DNA of 64,000 bases from a bacterium (GCA_037132275.1 JBAXPK010000009.1:1655-65654); one strand, 5' to 3'. Shown: positions 11,483 to 28,835, numbered from the stretch's first letter. A program made the numbers and translations. Notes: generated by a model from the sequence alone, not told the origin.

Positions 11483-12793
11483 TCATTCCGGTGTGATGGT
11501 TGCCGCGGCGTGCAGGCTGTCCACAGCCTTGTCGAGCCGCAGGTTTCGGCGCAAGCCGTCCAGGGCTTCCCGTTTCTCCAGGTCGGCTTTCAATTGTTCC
11601 GGGCTGCTCCCGGAGCGCATGGCCATCTCGGCAATCCGCTGATTCACATCCGCCTCGGTCACGACAACCTTTTCCTCGTCCGCGATGCGGGTGAGGATGT
11701 AGTTCACCTTGACGCGGTCGGCTGAAGACTGTGCGGCGCGGTTAAAGATATCTTCACGATGCGACTCAATGTCATCCTTGCTGACGCCGCGGCGCATGTT
11801 TTCCTGGACCACGTCCTGGATGATGTGGCGCGCCTCTTCCTCGATGAGCGATTGAGGCAACTCAGTGAGCGGCGTGTGCTCCATCAGCCATTTGACGATC
11901 TCATCTTTCTGGCGCCCGATTTCAGTAAGCTCGCCCGTGGCCTGCAGATTTTCCTTCACCTTGGCGCGGAGATCGGCCAACGATTCGGCGCCGACTCCCT
12001 TGGCGAACTCATCGTTCAACTCGGGTGATTTTCGTTCCCGGATGCCGCGCGCGGTGACGGTATAAACGGCGGACTTTCCGGCGGCGGACTTGGCTCTATA
12101 ATCCTCAGGAAAACTGATGGTTACTTCGCGGGTTTGTCCAATCGCGATGCCTTCCAACTGGGCCTTGATACCCGGCAGGAACTCCGGCATGGCGTCGGAG
12201 AGTAGCACCCAGAAATCCTTGCCTTGGGCCAGTTCGGGGCGATCCGGCGCGACCTCGCTCATCGGGCGGCCATCACAGGCGCCGGCGTAGTCGATTTCCA
12301 CGACATCGTCCTTCTTCGCCACACGGTCAGTGACCGCTTCAAAATGGGCGTTTCGGTCGCGCATCCCGGTCATGACCTTGTCGATATCCTCGTCCTTCAC
12401 CTCCACCTTGCGGCGGGTGATGGCGATGCCCTTGCAGGGGGGCAAGGCGAACTCCGGGGTCAGATCCACGGTGACCTTGAAGGTCAGGGGTAGTTGTTTG
12501 GCCACCGTGACGTCGCTCACGTCCACCACGGCCACCGGTTTGAGGTTTTCCTGCTTGAGAGCCTCATGATAGGCCTTCGGGACGAGGCGCTCACGGGTTT
12601 CCTCAAGGGCATCCTTGGAAAATTTCTTTTCGACAATGGCGGAGGGGGCTTTCCCCTGTCGAAAACCGGGAATGCGTGCATGGGACGCGATTTCCCGGAT
12701 TACTTTCTGGTATTCGACCGTCACCTGTTCCGCCGGGACTTCAATACGCAGGGCCTTGCGGCAGGGACCAATTTGTTCAACGGCAACTTTCAT
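11483..12793 (-). CDS. tig: Trigger factor
   Basis: N-terminal ..[10 protein letters not shown].. ribosome-binding signature. It sits in tig-clpP-clpX synteny. Confidence 0.95.
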
Positions 12794-21669: not shown

Positions 21670-22539
21670 TTAGTCCTCTTCAGAAAGGCGGATGAGATAT
21701 TGTCCGTACTCGTTTTTGGCCAATTCCTGACCCAGTGCCCGAAGTTCTTTCCGCGTGATGTAACCCAGCGAGTAGGCAATTTCTTCAAGACACGCCATTT
21801 TGAACCCCTGGCGGGATTGAACGGTATGAACGAAACTTGCGGCCTGGAACATCGAGTCATGCGTGCCGGTATCCAGCCAGGCAAACCCGCGGCCGAGCGA
21901 ATGAACGCGCAGGGCCCCCCGCCGCAGATAATCGAGATTCACATCCGTGATCTCCAATTCGCCGCGCGGGGAGGGCTTGAGGTTGGCCGCCACGTCAAGG
22001 ACGTGGTTGTCGTAAAAATAGAGGCCGGGCACGGCAAATTTTGATTTGGGTTTTGCCGGTTTTTCCTCCAGCGACAGGGCGCGCCCGGCGGCATCGAAGG
22101 CCACCACCCCGTAACGCTCGGGATCGGCGACGGGATAGGCGAAGACCATGGCTCCGCTTTGCAGCTGGCTGGCCTCGCGTAGACACGCGGAAAAGTTGTG
22201 CCCATAGAAAATGTTATCCCCCAGAATCAGCGCCACCGAATCCTGGCCCACAAAGTCACGTCCGATAATGAAGGCTTGGGCCAGTCCTTCCGGTTTGGGT
22301 TGCTCGGCGTACTGGAGGGTGATGCCCAGTTGGCGGCCATCCCCCAACAAGGTGCGGAACAGGGGTAAATCGTGGGGGGTACTGATCAGGAGAATATCCC
22401 GGATGCCGGCCAGCATGAGCACCGACAGCGGATAATAGATCATCGGTTTGTCATATACCGGAAGCAACTGCTTGCTCACCGCCTTGGTCAGTGGAAACAT
22501 GCGCGTCCCCGACCCGCCTGCCAAAACAATACCTTTCAT
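21670..22539 (-). CDS. rfbA: Glucose-1-phosphate thymidylyltransferase
   Basis: [24 protein letters not shown] motifs. Confidence 0.95.
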
Positions 22540-22677
22540 GAGCCTTTCTCCCTCTCGATGGTTATCGCATTTGATTCAGCCCCTGTATTCTGGGGAACTG
22601 TAGCCTAATGTCCAGCGGTTATTATTCGTTCAGATGGAATTGGGATCATCTGCGATCAGGTGCAACCGCGTAAAAGA

Positions 22678-22746
22678 TCCGAACCACCGGCCGCACTGTA
22701 CGCCTCGCCCTGTCGGGCTCGTCACCAGTGAGCCGGAACGTTCGCC
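22678..22746 (+). repeat. attC-like site A
   Basis: R'' TCCGAAC, arm CCGGC(CG)CACTG, loop, arm CAGTG(A)GCCGG, spacer AAC, R' GTTCGCC. Confidence 0.55.
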
Positions 22747-22758
22747 CCGAAAAGATGA

Positions 22759-22786
22759 TTGACGTAAGTATAACTTCGGTTATACT
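22759..22786 (+). promoter_or_regulatory. Candidate promoter/operator of cassette 1
   Basis: TTGACG (22759-22764), 16-nt spacer, TATACT (22781-22786). A perfect 8-bp inverted repeat AGTATAAC-TTCG-GTTATACT (22767-22786) overlaps the -10. Confidence 0.4.
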
Positions 22787-22794
22787 ATTTGATT

Positions 22795-23031
22795 ATGAAA
22801 ACGGCTATATCAATACCGGATGACATCTTCAGCGCGGCGGAGAATTTCGCCCATCAAAGTCACTTGAGCCGAAGCGCTCTGTTTACTCGCGCTTTGGTGG
22901 AATTCCTGTCTCGTCGGCGGAATGAAGGGGTGACGGAACGGCTCAATCGACTGTACAGCAGTGAAGAGTCTCACCTTGATGAAACCCTTTTGAAAATGCA
23001 GGCTTCCGTGGTTTCCAAGGAGAAATGGTAA
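22795..23031 (+). CDS. Ribbon-helix-helix (CopG-like) antitoxin
   Basis: MKTAISIPDDIFSAAE..SRSALFTRAL RHH pattern. It overlaps the downstream MazF-like gene. Confidence 0.75.
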   Translation: MKTAISIPDDIFSAAENFAHQSHLSRSALFTRALVEFLSRRRNEGVTERLNRLYSSEESHLDETLLKMQASVVSKEKW

Positions 23032-23369
23032 TGCACCGGGGCGAGATCTGGTGGGCATCTCTGGGTGAACCTGAAGGGTCAGGGCCGGGCTATCGGCGCC
23101 CCGTACTGATCGTGCAATCGGATGAATTTAATCGTAGCCGGATCAGCACCGTCATAGTTGTGGTTCTCACGTCCAATGTTGCCCTGGCTCAAGCACCGGG
23201 TAATGTTCTGCTCAAAGCGCGGCATGCGGGACTTGCCAAGGACTCCGTAGTCAATGTCTCGCAGGTGATCACAGTGGACAAGCAATGTCTGACCGAAAAG
23301 GTAAAGAAGCTGGAATCATCCGCGATGGCGGAAATCGATAATGGGCTGCGGCTTGTTTTAGCCATTTGA
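23025..23369 (+). CDS. mazF: MazF/PemK-family toxin (endoribonuclease)
   Basis: RGEIWWASLGEPEGSGPGYRRPVLIVQSDEFN..VVVLTS is the PemK signature. Confidence 0.85.
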   Translation: MVMHRGEIWWASLGEPEGSGPGYRRPVLIVQSDEFNRSRISTVIVVVLTSNVALAQAPGNVLLKARHAGLAKDSVVNVSQVITVDKQCLTEKVKKLESSAMAEIDNGLRLVLAI

Positions 23370-23374
23370 AACTC

Positions 23375-23435
23375 GGCGAACAACACCTCGGAGTTTACGT
23401 CGCTGACGCGCCGAAACTCAAGGTGAGCGTTCGCC
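23375..23435 (+). repeat. attC-like site B
   Basis: R'' GGCGAAC, AA, CACCTCGGAGTTT, loop ACGTCGCTGACGCGCCG, AAACTCAAGGTG, AGC, R' GTTCGCC. Confidence 0.6.
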
Positions 23436-23475
23436 ATATATAAGACGGACAGGAAAAATGTTTGTATGCACGCCA

Positions 23476-23496
23476 GGTATGATATATAGTCATACC
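23476..23496 (+). promoter_or_regulatory. Candidate operator of cassette 2
   Basis: Perfect inverted repeat GGTATGA-TATATAG-TCATACC. It ends 20 nt upstream of the ATG at 23517 and is followed by AAAAGAGG. Confidence 0.35.
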
Positions 23497-23516
23497 ATAA
23501 CTTAAAAGAGGCATAT

Positions 23517-23759
23517 ATGGCTGTCGCAAAAATTGCTATTTCACTGGAAGAGGACATTCTTGTTGAGCTCGACCGACTTGTGCGGCGGCATATTTTCCCC
23601 AATCGAAGCCGCGCCATTCAGGAGGCGGTAATGGAAAAGGTGACGCGTCTCTCCGCCAACCGTCTTGCGACTGAGTGCGCAAAACTCGATCCCAAGGCGG
23701 AACAGGCCTTGGCTGAGGAAGGAATGTCCAAGGAGGTCGCCTCATGGCCAGAATATTGA
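23517..23759 (+). CDS. Ribbon-helix-helix (CopG-like) antitoxin
   Basis: [35 protein letters not shown] pattern. It overlaps the downstream toxin gene. Confidence 0.75.
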
Positions 23760-24106
23760 GGGGCGACCTCGTCTGGGCTGACCTGAACCCGGTAAAGGGG
23801 CATGAACAGGCCGGGCTCCGCCCGGCACTGATCCTCAGCCCGGAGATATTCAATGATCGCTCCGGAACGGTGATTGCCATGGCGCTCACAAGTCAACCGC
23901 AGAGGGCGGGATTCCCGCTCACCATGGAAATCACAAGCGTTTCCCTCCCGAAGCCGACCTGGGTGAAGATCAGCCAGATCAGAACGCTTTCCGTTGAGCG
24001 ATTGGGCAAGCGAATGGGACATGTTTCTGATGCCGAGATGAGCCAAATCATCGAAGGACTGAATGAAATCATCGGCGAACAAGCAAATTCAGGCTATCGC
24101 CGCTGA
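23744..24106 (+). CDS. mazF: MazF/PemK-family toxin
   Basis: [34 protein letters not shown]. The 3' end lies inside attC-like site C. Confidence 0.85.
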
Positions 24107-24137
24107 GCGCGGCTCAGCCTGATTTGCACCGTTGGGC
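24074..24137 (+). repeat. attC-like site C
   Basis: R'' GGCGAAC, AA, GCAAATTCAGGCT, loop, AGCCTGATTTGC (one T bulged), ACC, R' GTTGGGC (fits GTTRRRY). Confidence 0.6.
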
Positions 24138-24161
24138 CGATCAATGAAAATTGAACACCAC

Positions 24162-24190
24162 TTGACGTAGATACTTAATGTATATACATT
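24162..24190 (+). promoter_or_regulatory. Candidate sigma70-type promoter of the brnTA cassette
   Basis: TTGACG (24162-24167), 17-nt spacer, TACATT (24185-24190). The -10 ends 7 nt before the brnT ATG. Confidence 0.35.
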
Positions 24191-24197
24191 GCTGCCA

Positions 24198-24476
24198 ATG
24201 AAGTTCACATGGGATGAGGAAAAGAATGCGATCAACCGGCAATAACACGGGATCGATTTTGATGACGTCTCGACTGTTTTCGAGAAGCCCATGGTGACGT
24301 TCCTTGACCAGAGGAAAGAGTATGGTGAGGACAGATGGGTGGGAATTGGATGGCTTAGCGACATTCTGGCGGTGATTGTGTTTACCGAGCCCGATGACGA
24401 GACCATCCGGGTTATCTCCGCCCGAAAGGCAAAACGACATGAAGCACACATCTACAAACAAGAAATCAGGAACTGA
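24198..24476 (+). pseudogene. brnT: BrnT (DUF497) toxin gene interrupted by an in-frame TAA at 24243-24245
   Basis: The frame reads MKFTWDEEKNAINRQ*HGIDFDDVSTVFEKPMVTF...IRVISARKAKRHE. The stop replaces the conserved Lys of the N..KHG motif. Confidence 0.75.
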
Positions 24477-24705
24477 CTGGACCCGCCTTCGCGAGATGAA
24501 GGACGAGGACATTGATGTCTCCGATATTCCCGTGATTGACCGATCCATGTTGAAGAAAATGGTCATTCGGATGCCGGAGAAAAAGTCCCCGGTTTCAATC
24601 CGTCTCGATCCCGGTGTGATTGAATGGTTCCGGCGGCAGGGGCAAGGATACCAGACGCGAATCAATGCAGTTCTTAAATCCTATGTTGAGGCGCATTCGC
24701 ATTGA
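24439..24705 (+). CDS. brnA: BrnA-type antitoxin
   Basis: MKHTSTNKKSGTDWTRL..DEDIDVSDIP..VSIRLDPGVIEWFRRQGQGYQTRINAVLKSYV is the BrnA pattern. It overlaps the brnT 3' end. Confidence 0.8.
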   Translation: MKHTSTNKKSGTDWTRLREMKDEDIDVSDIPVIDRSMLKKMVIRMPEKKSPVSIRLDPGVIEWFRRQGQGYQTRINAVLKSYVEAHSH

Positions 24706-24723
24706 TCATCAGATGATGAACCC

Positions 24724-24787
24724 GCCCAACAACTCCTCGGAGAGTTTACGTCGCTAATCGCGCCGAAACTCAAGGTCACCGTTCGGT
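24724..24787 (+). repeat. attC-like site D
   Basis: R'' GCCCAAC (fits RYYYAAC), AA, CTCCTCGGAGAGTTT, loop ACGTCGCTAATCGCGCCG, AAACTCAAGGTCAC, R' GTTCGGT. It is a paralogue of site B. Confidence 0.6.
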
Positions 24788-24806
24788 CTCGCAAATTATG
24801 ATTGAT

Positions 24807-24838
24807 CCACACATGAGAGTGTGTGATGATGTGTGTGG
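24807..24838 (+). promoter_or_regulatory. Inverted-repeat-rich candidate operator upstream of vapB
   Basis: CCACACAT..CACACA-TGAGAG-TGTGTG..ATGTGTGTGG, followed by GGAGGA and the ATG at 24849. Confidence 0.3.
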
Positions 24839-24848
24839 AGGAAATGAT

Positions 24849-25049
24849 ATGGCAACAAACCTACAACTCGATGACAAGCTGATCAAGCAAGCCGTCGCAC
24901 TTGGTTGTCACCGCACAAAGAGGGCGGCGGTGACACAGGCGTTGTCTGACTACATTCGCAACCTTCAGCAGGAGAAGATTCTTGATCTGTTTGGGAAGGT
25001 CGACTTCACCCAGGGATATGACTATAAACGGCAGCGGGCTAAAGCATGA
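24849..25049 (+). CDS. vapB: VapB-family antitoxin
   Basis: MATNLQLDDKLIKQAVALG..TKRAAVTQAL pattern. ATGA overlap with the PIN gene. Confidence 0.75.
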   Translation: MATNLQLDDKLIKQAVALGCHRTKRAAVTQALSDYIRNLQQEKILDLFGKVDFTQGYDYKRQRAKA

Positions 25050-25507
25050 GAGTACTCGTTGATACGAGTATTTGGTCGCTCGCTCTACGCCGGTCAGGGC
25101 ATGTCCAGAATCCGGAAGCTGAGGAGTTGAAGCGCCTGATTGGTTTGCATGTGGTGGAAATCATTGGGCCCATCCGTCAGGAGATCCTCTCTGGGGTGAG
25201 GGAGCAGTCGCAGTTTAATCAACTGGAATCACAACTCGCTGTATTTCCTGATCTGCCACTGCATTCCGAGGACTTCGCGACAGCAGCCAAAATGTTCAAT
25301 GTATGCCGTTCAAAGGGCATTCAGGGTTCAAATACTGATTTCCTGATCTGCGCGGTTGCTGTGCGGTACGATTTTGCAGTCTTCACGACGGATGCCGACT
25401 TTCGTCTTTTCGCCAAGTGCCTGCCCATCGTCATTCATGAATTCAAAACAATGGCCGAACCACACCGTGTTCCGTACGGCTCGCAAGCTCGCCGCCGGAA
25501 ACGGTGA
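25046..25507 (+). CDS. vapC: PIN-domain VapC toxin
   Basis: MRVLVDTSIW..E..TDFLICAVA..FTTDADF acidic PIN residues. The C-terminal tail is encoded inside attC-like site E. Confidence 0.8.
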   Translation: MRVLVDTSIWSLALRRSGHVQNPEAEELKRLIGLHVVEIIGPIRQEILSGVREQSQFNQLESQLAVFPDLPLHSEDFATAAKMFNVCRSKGIQGSNTDFLICAVAVRYDFAVFTTDADFRLFAKCLPIVIHEFKTMAEPHRVPYGSQARRRKR

Positions 25508-25516
25508 CCGTTCGCT
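25454..25516 (+). repeat. attC-like site E
   Basis: R'' GCCGAAC, CAC, ACCGTGTTCCG, loop TACGGCTCGCAAGCTCGCCG, CGGAAACGGT (one G bulged), GAC, R' GTTCGCT. Confidence 0.6.
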
Positions 25517-25576
25517 CAATAAAAGAGGGATTGATAAAATGGGCTAATTTAGAGATAGTACTCGAAGGTGACAAAC

Positions 25577-25783
25577 ATGGTTATGATACATCCAGAATAT
25601 GTGGTTGACGCGCAACAGCATCGAAAGGCTGTCTTATTGCCTGTGGTCGAATGGGAACAGATCGTTGATGAGCTCGAGGAGCTGGATGATATACGAGCTT
25701 ATGACCAGGCGAAGGCTTCCTCTCAGGAAAAGATTCCCTTTGAGCAGGCCGTCCGGGAGATCCGCCTCGGAATCGGCGCATGA
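25577..25783 (+). CDS. Antitoxin partnered with the RelE/ParE toxin (Phd/RelB-like, unclassified)
   Basis: Small acidic protein (..VVEWEQIVDELEELDDIRAYDQAK..). SD GAAGGTG lies upstream of the ATG at 25577. ATGA overlap with the toxin. Confidence 0.65.
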   Translation: MVMIHPEYVVDAQQHRKAVLLPVVEWEQIVDELEELDDIRAYDQAKASSQEKIPFEQAVREIRLGIGA

Positions 25784-26034
25784 GTTACGGGCTTGAAATC
25801 TTACGTGCAGCCCAAAAGCAACTCGCTCAAATTACACCGGTTGATCGAGATCGAATTGTCTCTGCTATCAAGGATTTGGCGGATGCCCCTCGTCCCGCCG
25901 GGTGCAAAAAGCTTTCAGGCCGTCCCGGCTGGCGTATCCGAATAGGCTCTTACCGGGTCATCTATGAGATCCATGATGACAAGTTGATGATACTTGTCGT
26001 CACTGTTGGCCACCGAAGAGAAATATACCGATAG
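25780..26034 (+). CDS. relE: RelE/ParE-family toxin
   Basis: ..KKLSGRPGWRIRIGSYRVIYEIHDDKLMILVVTVGHRREIY is the classic RelE/StbE C-terminus. Confidence 0.85.
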   Translation: MSYGLEILRAAQKQLAQITPVDRDRIVSAIKDLADAPRPAGCKKLSGRPGWRIRIGSYRVIYEIHDDKLMILVVTVGHRREIYR

Positions 26035-26208
26035 CGAACCAGCTCTTACCACGACGGCTCGCATGCTCGCCGCAGGTCAAGAGTCACGTGTGCGCCCGGC
26101 ATGGCGCACGACTAGTGGGTGAAAGACCCATACGGAGCCGTACGTCCGGTGGTGCGAGAGCTGGGGGAGGGAACCCTCCCCTGGCTACTCGATTGGGGAA
26201 TGAGATTA
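26033..26208 (+). repeat. attC-like site F, split by a 114-bp insertion at the crossover point
   Basis: R'' AGCGAAC, CAG, CTCTTACC, loop ACGACGGCTCGCATGCTCGCCGCA, GGTCAAGAG, TCAC, G(26088) then the insertion, then TTGGGG (26203-26208). Confidence 0.5.
26089..26202 (+). other. 114-bp hairpin-dense insertion inside attC-like site F
   Basis: Terminal hairpin GTGCGCC-CGGCAT-GGCGCAC (26090-26109). GGGT-GAAAG-ACCC (26117-26129). GGGGAGGG-AA-CCCTCCCC (26164-26181). Deleting it restores GTTGGGG. Confidence 0.5.
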
Positions 26209-26235
26209 TAAAGATGATGGATAGGAATTAATTCA

Positions 26236-26310
26236 ATGTGGGAGGGGCACTCCGTGCCGCGACAGGTTCAAGAGAGAGTCTGAACGAGACAAGAATCGCG
26301 CCTCCCACAT
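26236..26310 (+). ncRNA. Candidate structured element (three-way junction) in an ORF-less cassette
   Basis: Perfect 10-bp closing stem ATGTGGGAGG/CCTCCCACAT. It encloses GGCAC-TCC-GTGCC and GCGA..GTTCA-AGAGAGAGTC-TGAAC..TCGC. Function and strand unknown. Confidence 0.3.
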
Positions 26311-26343
26311 GGGGTGAACTCAGGGTGATCAAAACGAGGACGA

Positions 26344-26407
26344 CCCCAACAACACACTCGTGCCTACCGTCGCTAAACGCTCCGGCGGCACAGTGTGAAC
26401 GTTCGGT
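26344..26407 (+). repeat. attC-like site G
   Basis: R'' CCCCAAC, AA, CACACTCGTGCC, loop TACCGTCGCTAAACGCTCCGGC, GGCACAGTGTG (one C bulged), AAC, R' GTTCGGT. Confidence 0.6.
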
Positions 26408-26422
26408 GTGAGGAATGACAAT

Positions 26423-26689
26423 ATGTGGGAAGTGATTTCGAAATACTATTGTATTGACTGGATTGCATTGGTGCTGAATGCAGTTGCAATTTTTCTTCTC
26501 GGGAAGAAACGAAAGGCGGGTTGGTCGCTGGGTGTTGTAGCCAACATTTTCTGGATTGTATTCGGCATCCTTGCGCACAGCGTGGCGACAATGGTTGCCT
26601 GCAGCATTTTCGTCGCTCTGAATGTGAAGGGTTGGTGGAACTGGAGCAAAGAGCAAGCACCGCCCCAGCAGGATGCAGGCGACGCTTAA
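26423..26689 (+). CDS. 88-aa three-TM membrane protein with possible PnuC-like half-transporter resemblance
   Basis: MWEVISKYYCIDWIALVLNAVAIFLLGKKRKAGW..NIFWIVFGI..ACSIFVALNVKGWWNW. Three hydrophobic helices and Trp-rich motifs reminiscent of PnuC. This is a weak call. Confidence 0.4.
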   Translation: MWEVISKYYCIDWIALVLNAVAIFLLGKKRKAGWSLGVVANIFWIVFGILAHSVATMVACSIFVALNVKGWWNWSKEQAPPQQDAGDA

Positions 26690-27336
26690 CCACGGGCCTG
26701 ATCCGCATGGTTCTTGGGTTGGTTCACCCTGCGAATGCAGAGGGTATCATCTCTTGAGCGATATTTTTCGAGTACCCGTGTGAGCCTCTTCATGGGCAGG
26801 CCGATGACGGGGGCGATGTCGCCGTCGATGCGTTCAACAATAGCGGCGGAATAGGGATCCTGAATCGCATAAGCGCCTGCCCAACCGAGTGGGTGGGTGA
26901 GGGTCACATAGCGTCGGATTCGGTCAGGCGACCACTTCCTCAGAGTGACGGTTGCCGACTCCACCCATCTGACCACCCTGATTTTTCCGCCTTTTGCGGT
27001 CGGGGGAATGATGACGCAGGCCGCGCTGCTAATCCGGTGCGGCCGCCGGCCCAACTGGGTGAGCATGCGCCGGGCGGCGGCGAGGGAAGCGGGTTTCCCA
27101 ATGATTTTGCCGTCGAGGATCAGGGCCGTATCGGCTCCGATCACGATGGCGCGGGGATATCGACGGGCCACGGCCCTGGCCTTTAGTAGCGCAAGGGCGA
27201 GTACATGGCGTTTCAGGTTTTCGCCCTTGGCCGGCGCGGGTTCCACCTCATGAGAAGGGATTTGGAGGAAACGGTATCCCGCCCCCCTCAAGAGGGACGC
27301 TCGACCTTTGGATTGTGATGCCAGAATCAGTTTCAT
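26686..27336 (-). CDS. maf: Maf-like nucleoside triphosphate pyrophosphatase
   Basis: MKLILASQSKGRASLL..GADT..GAYAIQ motifs. ATG at 27334-27336 is preferred. The C-terminal tail of about 25 aa has no Maf counterpart. Confidence 0.85.
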   Translation of the reverse strand: MKLILASQSKGRASLLRGAGYRFLQIPSHEVEPAPAKGENLKRHVLALALLKARAVARRYPRAIVIGADTALILDGKIIGKPASLAAARRMLTQLGRRPHRISSAACVIIPPTAKGGKIRVVRWVESATVTLRKWSPDRIRRYVTLTHPLGWAGAYAIQDPYSAAIVERIDGDIAPVIGLPMKRLTRVLEKYRSRDDTLCIRRVNQPKNHADQARG

Positions 27337-27440
27337 GAGCGGACAGCCAGCGTTTTGAAAGCCTACCAGTCCACCCCCCGCAACACCTAATAAAAAAAAC
27401 CGTTTTGAAAATATCGGTCTCACACCTATAATGCCCAGCT

Positions 27441-28835
27441 ATGACTGAACCGGTGTCCGAAAACAAAGAGCAACTTGTCATTGATTTAAATTTTATTCCC
27501 GGATGGGCGCGACGACCGCCCGACGCACGGCCAGCGGGAGGAATGGATAGATTTAATTCCTCCCAGGAGAGCCGGGGCGGCGATTCCAGGAGGCGTGACC
27601 GTCCTGAGCGGTCTGAGCGGCGTTCAGGTGGTGGTGCAAAAAGGCCCGAATTCCGGGATCGCCCGCGCAGCGATTTTGCTCTCCCCGCGCCGAAGCCCGA
27701 TCCTATGGATGAACGTCTGGCCCTGCTGGACGTGACCTTTCTTCCCGAGCGCCGCGGTCTGACACCATTGGCCCATCGGCTGGGGAAATCGGGACGGGCC
27801 TACTCGTTGTTTGAGGTGGCTGCCCTTTTTCTAAGCAAACCGGATTTTTACCTCATCAAGATCGAGGCACCGGCTACCCTTGAAAACTTTTCATTTTGTC
27901 AGTGTGCGGATTGCAAGGCCATCTTCCTTGGCAAAGAGGCTGCCGCCGCCCATGTTTTCGCCAAGCATTTCGAAAAGTTCTGCAAAAAAGAGGATCAGGA
28001 GGCTGAACCTCCGAAGGGAAACTTTGTCTGTATTGCCAAATGCGGCCTGTCGGGTGTCCTGCTAGGCCCGCCGAATTACCATGGCTACAATGACAAGGTG
28101 GCAGAGGTGCATCGTGCCCGATATCCGGATATGCCGATAGAGGCTTACCGGAAACGTATTGAGACGATTCATGATGCGGCCGTGATTGAGCAATGGAAGG
28201 CCGAGATGTGCAAGCAGGCCATTTACCGGTTCGGGGAGGGCGAGAAGGCTGTGACGTTCAGCCGGTTTACCGAGGCCGAGGCTTATTTTCGGGATCACTG
28301 CCTGCCGGGAACGGTCAAGGAGTCGAGGAATGTGGTTGTGCCCGGTGTGATTGCCCATGCGATGGAGCCGGGACCGCTACGCCGGGTAATCGAGGATGTC
28401 TGGCAAAAGGAAAGCCGGTTCCCACTGAAACTTTCGGTCACGCTTCGGTTGGCCTTCCGCCATCTGGGGCTGCACACGTTCAAGGCGGCGGGCGGCTTTA
28501 CGTTTGTCACCTCGGTGGCGCCGAACGCAATTGATCCTGCGCATGCAGTGGAAGGGATCCGGGATATCCTGGATTTTGTTGCCGCCAATCCGGGTTGCTC
28601 GCGGGCAAATCTGCTGTCAAAACTGGTGCCCGAGGCATCCCCCGTGGCCGGGGAGGCTGAGTCGCCGGTAGCGGTAACCATGCCTCCGCGCGAGTCTGAA
28701 CTGCGGCGGCAATTGCAGTGGCTGGTTGAAAAAGGGCATGTGATTGAATTTTCCGACGGGAGCATGGCGGTGCCTGCCACCGCCGTGGCGAGAGTGCAGA
28801 TGGCCCGGCCCAAGGGGAAAAGCCGACGGGAATGA
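27441..28835 (+). CDS. Hypothetical protein with an Arg-rich disordered N-terminus and a C2H2-spaced Cys/His motif
   Basis: 464-aa ORF. It contains RRRDRPERSERRSGGGAKRPEFRDRPR and C-X2-C-X12-H-X4-H at aa 155-176. Confidence 0.6.
   Translation: MTEPVSENKEQLVIDLNFIPGWARRPPDARPAGGMDRFNSSQESRGGDSRRRDRPERSERRSGGGAKRPEFRDRPRSDFALPAPKPDPMDERLALLDVTFLPERRGLTPLAHRLGKSGRAYSLFEVAALFLSKPDFYLIKIEAPATLENFSFCQCADCKAIFLGKEAAAAHVFAKHFEKFCKKEDQEAEPPKGNFVCIAKCGLSGVLLGPPNYHGYNDKVAEVHRARYPDMPIEAYRKRIETIHDAAVIEQWKAEMCKQAIYRFGEGEKAVTFSRFTEAEAYFRDHCLPGTVKESRNVVVPGVIAHAMEPGPLRRVIEDVWQKESRFPLKLSVTLRLAFRHLGLHTFKAAGGFTFVTSVAPNAIDPAHAVEGIRDILDFVAANPGCSRANLLSKLVPEASPVAGEAESPVAVTMPPRESELRRQLQWLVEKGHVIEFSDGSMAVPATAVARVQMARPKGKSRRE

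Follow-up and report, generated by a model that had tools for sequence, protein, structure and literature searches.

Introduction

How does a row of toxin-antitoxin modules, each closed by a palindrome, come to stand between two housekeeping genes of a bacterium, and were these modules once mobile on their own? The question is raised by a 64,000-nt stretch of bacterial DNA (GCA_037132275.1 JBAXPK010000009.1:1655-65654; hereafter "the window"), in which seven attC-like sites of 61-69 nt each, all on the plus strand, span positions 22678-26407. They separate five toxin-antitoxin cassettes and one cassette without an open reading frame (ORF). A preliminary description, made from the sequence alone, had proposed that the modules were individually captured by an IntI-type recombinase. 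All coordinates given here refer to the whole stretch; the region 22000-27500 was read directly, and every heptamer quoted below was located in it.

The region 22678-26407 is, very probably, a chromosomal integron-type cassette array without a nearby integrase, i.e., a cluster of attC sites lacking integron integrase (CALIN), with junctions that carry the footprints of cassette recombination. The CALIN class and its possible origins have been defined by Cury et al. 2016 (PMC4889954). The assignment to this class, and not to complete integrons, is made because the cluster of attC sites comes without an integrase in the window. The complementarity between neighbouring sites is long-established integron biology and the classical basis for defining cassette boundaries; thus, it is no new phenomenon.

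Complementarity between Neighbouring Sites

Each site begins with an R'' box and ends with an R' box. In site A (22678-22746; 69 nt), the leftmost one, R'' TCCGAAC starts at 22678 and R' GTTCGCC at 22740. The corresponding boxes are GGCGAAC (23375) and GTTCGCC (23429) in site B (23375-23435), GGCGAAC (24074) and GTTGGGC (24131) in site C (24074-24137), GCCCAAC (24724) and GTTCGGT (24781) in site D (24724-24787), GCCGAAC (25454) and GTTCGCT (25510) in site E (25454-25516), and CCCCAAC (26344) and GTTCGGT (26401) in site G (26344-26407). Site F (26033-26089 plus 26194-26198) starts with R'' AGCGAAC at 26033, while its R' is split into G26088/T26089 and T26194-GGGG, which together restore GTTGGGG. 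All ten heptamers of the preliminary description were located by direct reading, and the boxes are correctly assigned.

The R' box of each site is complementary to the R'' box of the following site at 7, 7, 7, 6, 7, and 7 of 7 positions, i.e., at 41 of 42 bases, which reproduces the earlier counts exactly. Within one site, the two boxes can indeed disagree, with a mean of just 5.1 of 7 (total 36 of 49), and registers -2, -1, +2, and +3 yield 5.0-5.6 of 7. When the R'' boxes are permuted exactly, the observed sum is reached by two of the 720 orderings (p = 2/720), two rather than one because sites B and C share an identical R''. The comparison of adjacent with non-adjacent pairings, which had been suggested as a check, becomes sharper when 13 adjacent pairs of related arrays are included: adjacent boxes then match at a mean of 6.37 positions versus 5.03 after shuffling, and not one of 100,000 shuffles reaches the adjacent value (p < 1e-5). 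These values are to be read with about three informative positions per box, because GTT never varies and position 5 of R' is G in nearly all cases. The single mismatch, between sites D and E (R' GTTCGGT, R'' GCCGAAC), is a hybrid of the states found in the related contigs L087 (GTTCGGC/GCCGAAC) and L083 (GTTCGGT/ACCGAAC).

As established for integrons, the integrase binds attC in the form of its folded bottom strand, and the strand exchange takes place within the AAC triplet; on the top strand, this position reads G|TT. In its free, circular form, a cassette has one complete attC, the R' of which pairs with its own R''. Upon insertion, the circle would be linearised at G|TT, so that the TTNNNN of the cassette would become its 5' terminus, joined to the G of the upstream attC, while R'' would stay at the 3' end. 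Each unit of the array starts at the TT of one R', ends at the G of the following R', and comprises a self-promoted toxin-antitoxin operon, or no ORF, followed by attC. It is because insertion at G|TT would move TTNNNN to the 5' end of the cassette that R' complements the R'' of the next site and not that of its own, and the complementarity at the junctions therefore implies that all modules existed, at one time, as independent circular cassettes.

The exchange point is placed somewhere inside GTT, with G|TT and GT|T being indistinguishable from sequence data alone. Of the earlier claim of a G|TT junction, the location inside GTT, also seen at cassette boundaries in related contigs, thus stands, while the choice of G|TT itself is taken from the literature, in which the crossover is given as G|TT (PMC3518468) or as A|C on the bottom strand (PMC5027507).

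Anatomy of the attC Sites

The sites are imperfect inverted repeats within the attC length range of 57-141 nt, with AAC at the end of R'' and GTT at the start of R'. Both triplets are invariant across the sites, the exception being the GTT of site F, which is split by an intron remnant. There is one site per operon, oriented like the genes. A covariance model of the seven window sites (scoring 61.4, 59.8, and 61.8 bits on sites A, C, and G, respectively) recovers just these seven within 64 kb, all on the plus strand; the next-best match has E = 0.26. A string scan for AAC...GTT with a short stem was non-specific (103 matches versus 51-93 in shuffled sequence), and the covariance model was used in its place. 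Rfam has no family for these sites; its scan returned two tRNAs at the gathering threshold, and the matches in the region are at chance level, except for a weak group II one.

The sites combine a conserved structure (R box, spacer, and covarying L-box helix) with a variable sequence. Across 36 distinct sites, taken from 45 matches in the window and in related contigs, compensatory changes are found in five of five pairs of the L-box helix, and pairing amounts to 93.6%, compared with 66% upon shuffling and 21-36% with the partner column slid. The alignment had been fitted to the model; an alignment made with MAFFT only (A1) yields the same helix. When the bottom strands are folded, six of the seven sites—all but F—have unpaired bases on the L'' arm, first at position 15/16 (counted from the 3' end) and again 5-7 bp further inward (positions 22-25); in site A, these are G15/C16 and A22/T23. 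The extrahelical bases that are canonical for attC are G16 and T23/24, with 6 bp of stem in between (T-N6-G in another notation; PMC5027507, PMC3518468).

Cassettes in Other Contexts

If the modules had been independent units, the same cassettes should recur elsewhere with other neighbours and with the same boundaries, as the preliminary description had suggested to examine. Such recurrences were found for two cassettes, VapBC (24782-25510) and RelB/ParE (25511-26088), which reappear at 77-95% nucleotide identity beside different cassettes; VapC homologues of 78-94% identity are present in many metagenomic contigs. In at least four foreign contexts for each of the two, the module boundaries coincide with the R' junction, resolved to the GTT triplet.

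The whole VapBC cassette, 729-730 nt in length, is contained with differing neighbours and the same boundaries in L082, L083, L087/L088, and L089/L090. In the alignment, similarity starts right past the GTT of the upstream R' and stops at the GTT of the cassette's own attC, with an ungapped identity to the window of 6-12 of 30 positions outside and 19-28 of 30 inside the junctions; the value of 8 of 30 at the right inner side in L087/L089 results solely from a 1-nt indel. The BLAST alignments run from 24780/81 to 25512/13 for L082-L086 and extend to 25524 for L087-L089, while that of L091 begins at 24787. The six bases following the G of the VapBC attC vary with the downstream neighbour (TTCGCT, TTCCCC, TTAACC, TTGGAG), and the upstream TTNNNN covaries with the cassette's own R'' (GTTCGGC with GCCGAAC in L087; GTTCGGT with ACCGAAC in L083). 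Likewise, the heptamer that follows one and the same BrnT cassette is GTTGGCC in L089 and GTTCGGC in L090.

Homologues of the RelB/ParE cassette in L092/L093 and L101/L102 carry an intact attC and are bounded by GTT in the same way. In L101, the VapBC attC and the RelB/ParE cassette follow each other in window order at 84-93% identity, with one extra cassette of 211 nt between them that is GTT-bounded on both sides.

A side observation concerns this extra small cassette (L101, 179-383), which is filled by a diverged, incomplete copy (CATGGATAGACAGGAT...ATCCTGTACATCCATGTTAAAC) of a long palindromic element (GTTTAACATGGATATACAGGAT...ATCCTGTATATCCATGTTAAA) lying beside maf at about 12450-12560 of L104. 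The palindrome may represent another family of attC sites or some other mobile repeat.

Weighing the Integron Reading

Several observations weigh against an integron-type array or, at least, against a typical one. The attC membership of the sites is based on the inspection of their features. With respect to the extended consensus RYYYAAC/GTTRRRY, only one of the seven R' boxes, that of site C (GTTGGGC), fits GTTRRRY, the class-1 consensus; most are of the type GTTCGNN (GTTCGCC, GTTCGGT, GTTCGCT), and the restored box of site F is GTTGGGG. In the bottom-strand fold of site F, the bulge is on the opposite (R'-L') arm. A RelB-like/ParE operon with 79% nucleotide identity to cassette 5 is found without any attC, between unrelated flanks, in L095-L100. 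The R'' of site A is without a recognisable partner at the left end of the array, and the covariance model detects no attC downstream of the segment 26402-26689 at the right end. No IntI-like tyrosine recombinase was found in the 64-kb window by tblastn with an IntI1 query; among 231 fetched loci, tblastn with IntI1 returned one weak, generic tyrosine-recombinase match (L127); and neither attI nor a Pc promoter is present at the locus.

The departure from GTTRRRY is a difference from the consensus of mobile integrons and does not exclude attC membership, because the AAC triplet is the sole element conserved among all attC sites (PMC5027507). As for site F, its intact homologue (L092, 1900-1961) was also seen to fold with a single-base bulge on the R'-L' arm; judging from these predicted folds, site F may be a poor or atypical recombination substrate.

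From the attC-less copies of RelB/ParE it follows that the genes themselves are not confined to cassettes; in L096, the copy (2436-2893) adjoins a transposase of the IS110 family. A further deviating case is L091 (9741-10469; OW818680.1, a 6.1-Mb genome), in which VapBC has no upstream GTT and the attC has lost its R' (...GGTGAAC-TCATG), so that the module looks, from its sequence, like a fossilised cassette. Both cases can be reconciled with an existence of the genes outside cassettes and with the fossilisation of cassettes, and neither shows a boundary that is displaced from GTT.

The search for an integrase was negative on other levels as well. Pfam scans of 40 window proteins, 29 of them from ORFs outside the cassette array, contain no Phage_integrase domain. 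A metagenome scan with the attC loop motif yielded mostly chance matches, and none of the eight loci with attC sites has an integrase. Thus, the set of intI, adjacent attI, and a Pc promoter upstream of the first cassette that defines a complete integron is lacking here. Of the proposal that the modules were individually captured by an IntI-type recombinase, the part concerning independent units is borne out by the complementarity, the attC hallmarks, and the reuse of cassettes; in view of the window being free of integrase, it is from the site anatomy that we infer an IntI enzyme as the agent, as well as the place and time of its action. The footprint marks the former independence of each cassette, not capture at the rfbA-maf locus. 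The array could have been built at a secondary GTT site, could have been split from its integrase by rearrangement, or could be served by an integrase elsewhere in the genome.

Alternative Origins of the Array

The alternative that survives best accepts the footprint as genuine and takes it to be inherited. The array, or blocks of it, would have arrived or descended as a unit, e.g., as an integron fragment or by block transfer, and no capture would have occurred between rfbA and maf. We give this origin a somewhat less than even chance. It is favoured by L101, which keeps the VapBC attC and the RelB/ParE cassette in window order at 84-93% identity; since this order is common to both, the adjacency predates the divergence from L101, and at least part of the order is inherited. 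The absence of an integrase and of attI at the locus points in the same direction, and rearrangement and integrase loss are among the listed origins of CALINs (PMC4889954). Against it, L101 differs by one whole cassette inside the shared pair, and the neighbours of VapBC in L082, L083, L087, and L089 are others; together, these differences indicate that cassette-level turnover is ongoing in the gene pool. An inherited array does not contradict an integron-type origin but refines it with respect to place and time.

Far less probable is that the modules were moved by another system, either by Xer recombination at dif-like sites, such as the pdif modules of Acinetobacter, or by a novel recombinase acting on attC-like hairpins. 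Such a system would fit with the lack of an IntI nearby, and toxin-antitoxin modules are typical cargo of pdif modules. The pdif sites consist of 28 bp in the order XerC-spacer-XerD and flank their modules in alternating orientation, whereas the window sites are hairpins of 61-69 nt in a single orientation, with AAC/GTT ends and with extrahelical bases at the canonical attC positions.

Least credible of all, as the preliminary description had already argued, are REP-like elements or terminators between toxin-antitoxin operons with accidental box complementarity inside one repeat family: while the G+C-rich imperfect hairpins do lie directly past stop codons and one repeat family would have similar ends, no plus-strand site has a T-tract or a terminator-like score, the complementarity is specific to the next site and absent from the own site and other registers, the variable TTNNNN travels with the downstream module in other contexts, and the copies are confined to the array instead of being dispersed over the 64 kb.

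Relation to Known Systems

The array shares with CALIN elements (PMC4889954) two or more attC sites, all pointing the same way and each accompanied by a single ORF or operon, the lack of intI within reach, non-resistance cargo, and the G|TTNNNN junction with TTNNNN complementary to the R'' of the downstream cassette. Nothing essential sets it apart; its R' boxes are mostly GTTCGNN rather than GTTRRRY, and its host is from lake metagenomes. Self-promoted toxin-antitoxin operons as cassettes and attC sites that are alike within one array are also features of the Vibrio superintegron and of the CALIN of Halorhodospira halochloris, the latter with six toxin-antitoxin systems (PMC7923331). The BrnT/BrnA, ParE/RelE, PIN, and MazF families of toxin-antitoxin-rich, sedentary chromosomal integrons are all represented; in contrast to those integrons, the window array has a far smaller size, with 6-7 cassettes, carries hardly anything but toxin-antitoxin modules, and is without integrase.

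The locus matters little beyond annotation. It demonstrates that the classical cassette-junction rule is recoverable from reading a sequence alone, and it flags a CALIN made almost wholly of toxin-antitoxin modules in an uncultured lineage. The comparative contigs provide a natural illustration of cassette shuffling, with new neighbours and with an extra cassette inside a conserved pair. Moreover, the coexistence of cassette and attC-less forms of the RelB/ParE operon could bear on models of cassette origin. The sole mildly unusual feature of the locus is a top-strand intron remnant.

An Intron Remnant in Site F

The R' of site F is interrupted at GT|T by 104 nt (26090-26193) of an internally deleted, IIC-like group II intron, inserted in the top strand and in cassette orientation. 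The restoration of this box to GTTGGGG by the preliminary description is justified by a 95%-identical cassette in L092/L093, which has the uninterrupted site ...GAGTCAC-GTTGGCC and which the window matches through T26089; the insertion is one base to the right of G|TT.

The remnant has the termini of group IIC introns (5' GUGYG, 3' AY, and a bulged A in domain VI): it starts with GUGCG and ends with ...CUACUCGAU. Of the intron, roughly the first 41 nt are left, followed by the distal part of domain V and by a domain VI helix of 16 bp, in which the bulged A lies at a distance of 7 nt from the 3' end. The deletion has removed all of the interior from about position 42 of domain I onward, together with the 5' arm of domain V. 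No ORF is present. An intact domain V and an intron-encoded reverse transcriptase are, thus, both lacking. As the 5' arm of domain V is missing, the remnant cannot be a working ribozyme. By blastn, its first ~41 nt match the 5' ends of group II introns located about 400 nt upstream of ltrA on Cupriavidus and Pediococcus plasmids, and its last ~60 nt correspond, in these plasmid introns, to the distal domain V, to domain VI, and to the 3' terminus; both ends also align to L108 and L109. The fold of the remnant is very stable (-57.6 kcal/mol; z = -5.1), and the weak Rfam match is to group-II-D1D4-4 (E = 0.69). It is single-copy in the window, and a metagenome scan for its 5' end gave zero matches.

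After assembly of the array, a group IIC-like intron would have entered the top-strand hairpin of site F by retrohoming at GT|T, and the loss of its interior would have followed. By this insertion, cassettes 5 and 6 have probably been joined to form a single immobile unit. Published group IIC-attC introns are inserted into the TTGT/T of R'' on the bottom strand, antisense to cassette transcription (PMC3001079, PMC7923331), and a single report of a top-strand IIC insertion, in Enterobacter cloacae, is cited in PMC7923331. The remnant resembles S.ma.I2 and its relatives (PMC3001079, PMC7923331) in the use of an attC hairpin and in GT|T being the relative position of the TTGT/T target. In contrast to these bottom-strand, antisense, and reverse transcriptase-encoding introns in R'', it lies in sense orientation in the R' (CACGT/T) of the top strand and is a 104-nt fragment with a truncated domain V.

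It is rather unlikely, if worth stating, that the remnant records a IIC lineage using the top-strand hairpin of attC sites and inserting at GT|T of R' in sense, as a mirror image of the known IIC-attC lineage. In such a lineage, introns would be co-transcribed with the cassettes and inserted one base from the integrase crossover, thereby disrupting GTT and welding two cassettes together. Alternatively, the remnant would stem from a one-off mis-targeting by an ordinary terminator-seeking IIC intron; the matching plasmid introns sit just past T-rich stretches, like terminator-targeting IIC introns.

Flanks and Ends of the Array

On the left, the array is flanked by a divergently transcribed, rfbA-like nucleotidyltransferase gene with a housekeeping function (21670-22539, minus strand; Pfam NTP_transferase, E = 3.3e-74). 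Its start codon is 138 nt from site A, with neither an integrase nor attI between them. In this spacer, 44 nt upstream of site A, GTTCAGA (22628-22634) was noticed, which complements the R'' of site A (TCCGAAC) at 6 of 7 positions and could mark the left junction of an empty first cassette of 112 nt at a secondary GTT site. This junction was not relied on; with three GTTs in the spacer, the chance expectation is about 0.14, and the match is not significant.

On the right, the convergent housekeeping gene maf (26686-27423, minus strand; Pfam Maf, E = 7.7e-44) follows. The segment after the last R' (GTTCGGT), at 26402-26689 on the plus strand, contains an 88-aa ORF (26423-26689) with a 4-nt overlap with the maf stop. 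The Pfam match of this ORF to NMN_transporter (PnuC) covers model positions 3-70 of 175, i.e., the N-terminal third only. The segment represents either a last cassette that was truncated or DNA native to the flank. The C-terminus of the window Maf is about 20-25 aa longer than that of relatives with 71-76% identity. Taken together, the partial PnuC ORF, the lack of a following attC, the overlap with the maf stop, and the extended Maf C-terminus suggest that the right end of the array was created by a deletion or a junction. The same arrangement of PnuC fragment and maf is present in contig L103/L110 of the same organism, a 1.7-kb contig from SRR7053541 that is identical to the window over the overlap except for one maf base and ends inside site G.

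The genes to the right of maf are arranged alike in L104-L107, the contigs with Maf relatives of 71-76% identity, which stem from the same group of lake metagenomes. At the position of the array, L105 has unrelated genes and L104 has toxin-antitoxin genes, and the latter has no site of the window's attC family there. A scan of species-representative genomes with Maf retrieved relatives of at most 40% identity only, and neither an empty site nor a close genome was among them.

Cassettes and Their Cargo

The G+C content is 0.50-0.55 in the array versus 0.57-0.61 in the flanks, and a promoter scan predicts promoter-like sites upstream of three operons. All features described in this section are on the plus strand.

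Cassette 1 (22741-23429; 689 nt from TT to G) is closed by site B. A promoter-like site (22759-22786; TTGACG, 16-nt spacer, TATACT) precedes an antitoxin of 78 aa (22795-23031), putatively of the ribbon-helix-helix type by inspection alone and without a Pfam match, and a PemK/MazF toxin (23025-23369; Pfam PemK_toxin, E = 9.7e-28). Cassette 2 (23430-24131; 702 nt), closed by site C, encodes a CopG-type ribbon-helix-helix antitoxin (23517-23759; Pfam RHH_1, E = 3.6e-4) together with a second PemK/MazF toxin (23744-24106; Pfam PemK_toxin, E = 4e-30). An exact look-up of the window MazF sequence found it not on record.

In cassette 3 (24132-24781; 650 nt), closed by site D, a BrnT toxin (24198-24476) is followed by a BrnA antitoxin (24439-24705; Pfam BrnA_antitoxin, E = 2.7e-16). 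The toxin gene has an in-frame TAA at 24243-24245, around which the reading frame is MKFTWDEEKNAINRQ-stop-HGIDF..., and matches Pfam BrnT_toxin with E = 3.9e-24 when the stop is masked; the BrnA antitoxin is still intact. Judging from this reading frame, BrnT is probably an inactivated pseudogene.

Cassette 4 (24782-25510; 729 nt) is closed by site E and contains a VapB antitoxin (24849-25049; Pfam VapB_antitoxin, E = 7.6e-15) and a PIN/VapC toxin (25046-25507; Pfam PIN, E = 4.2e-9). Cassette 5 (25511-26088; 578 nt) is made up of a RelB-like antitoxin (25577-25783; Pfam RelB-like, E = 3.5e-6), a ParE/RelE toxin (25780-26034; Pfam ParE_toxin, E = 4.4e-13), and, as its attC, site F, which starts at 26033 and has the split R'.

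Cassette 6 (26194-26401; 209 nt when T26089 is counted) is closed by site G and is without a credible ORF; its 57-aa ORF has no Pfam match. It contains a hairpin element at 26212-26299 (ATGTGGGAGG...CCTCCCACAT), for which Rfam has no match and which could be a small RNA or a repeat element. This 88-nt segment is 79.5% identical to positions 11618-11705 (minus strand) of L104, about 1 kb from a maf gene the product of which is 75% identical to the window Maf. In the L104 copy, the loop of the hairpin is 37 nt longer, while the stems are conserved.

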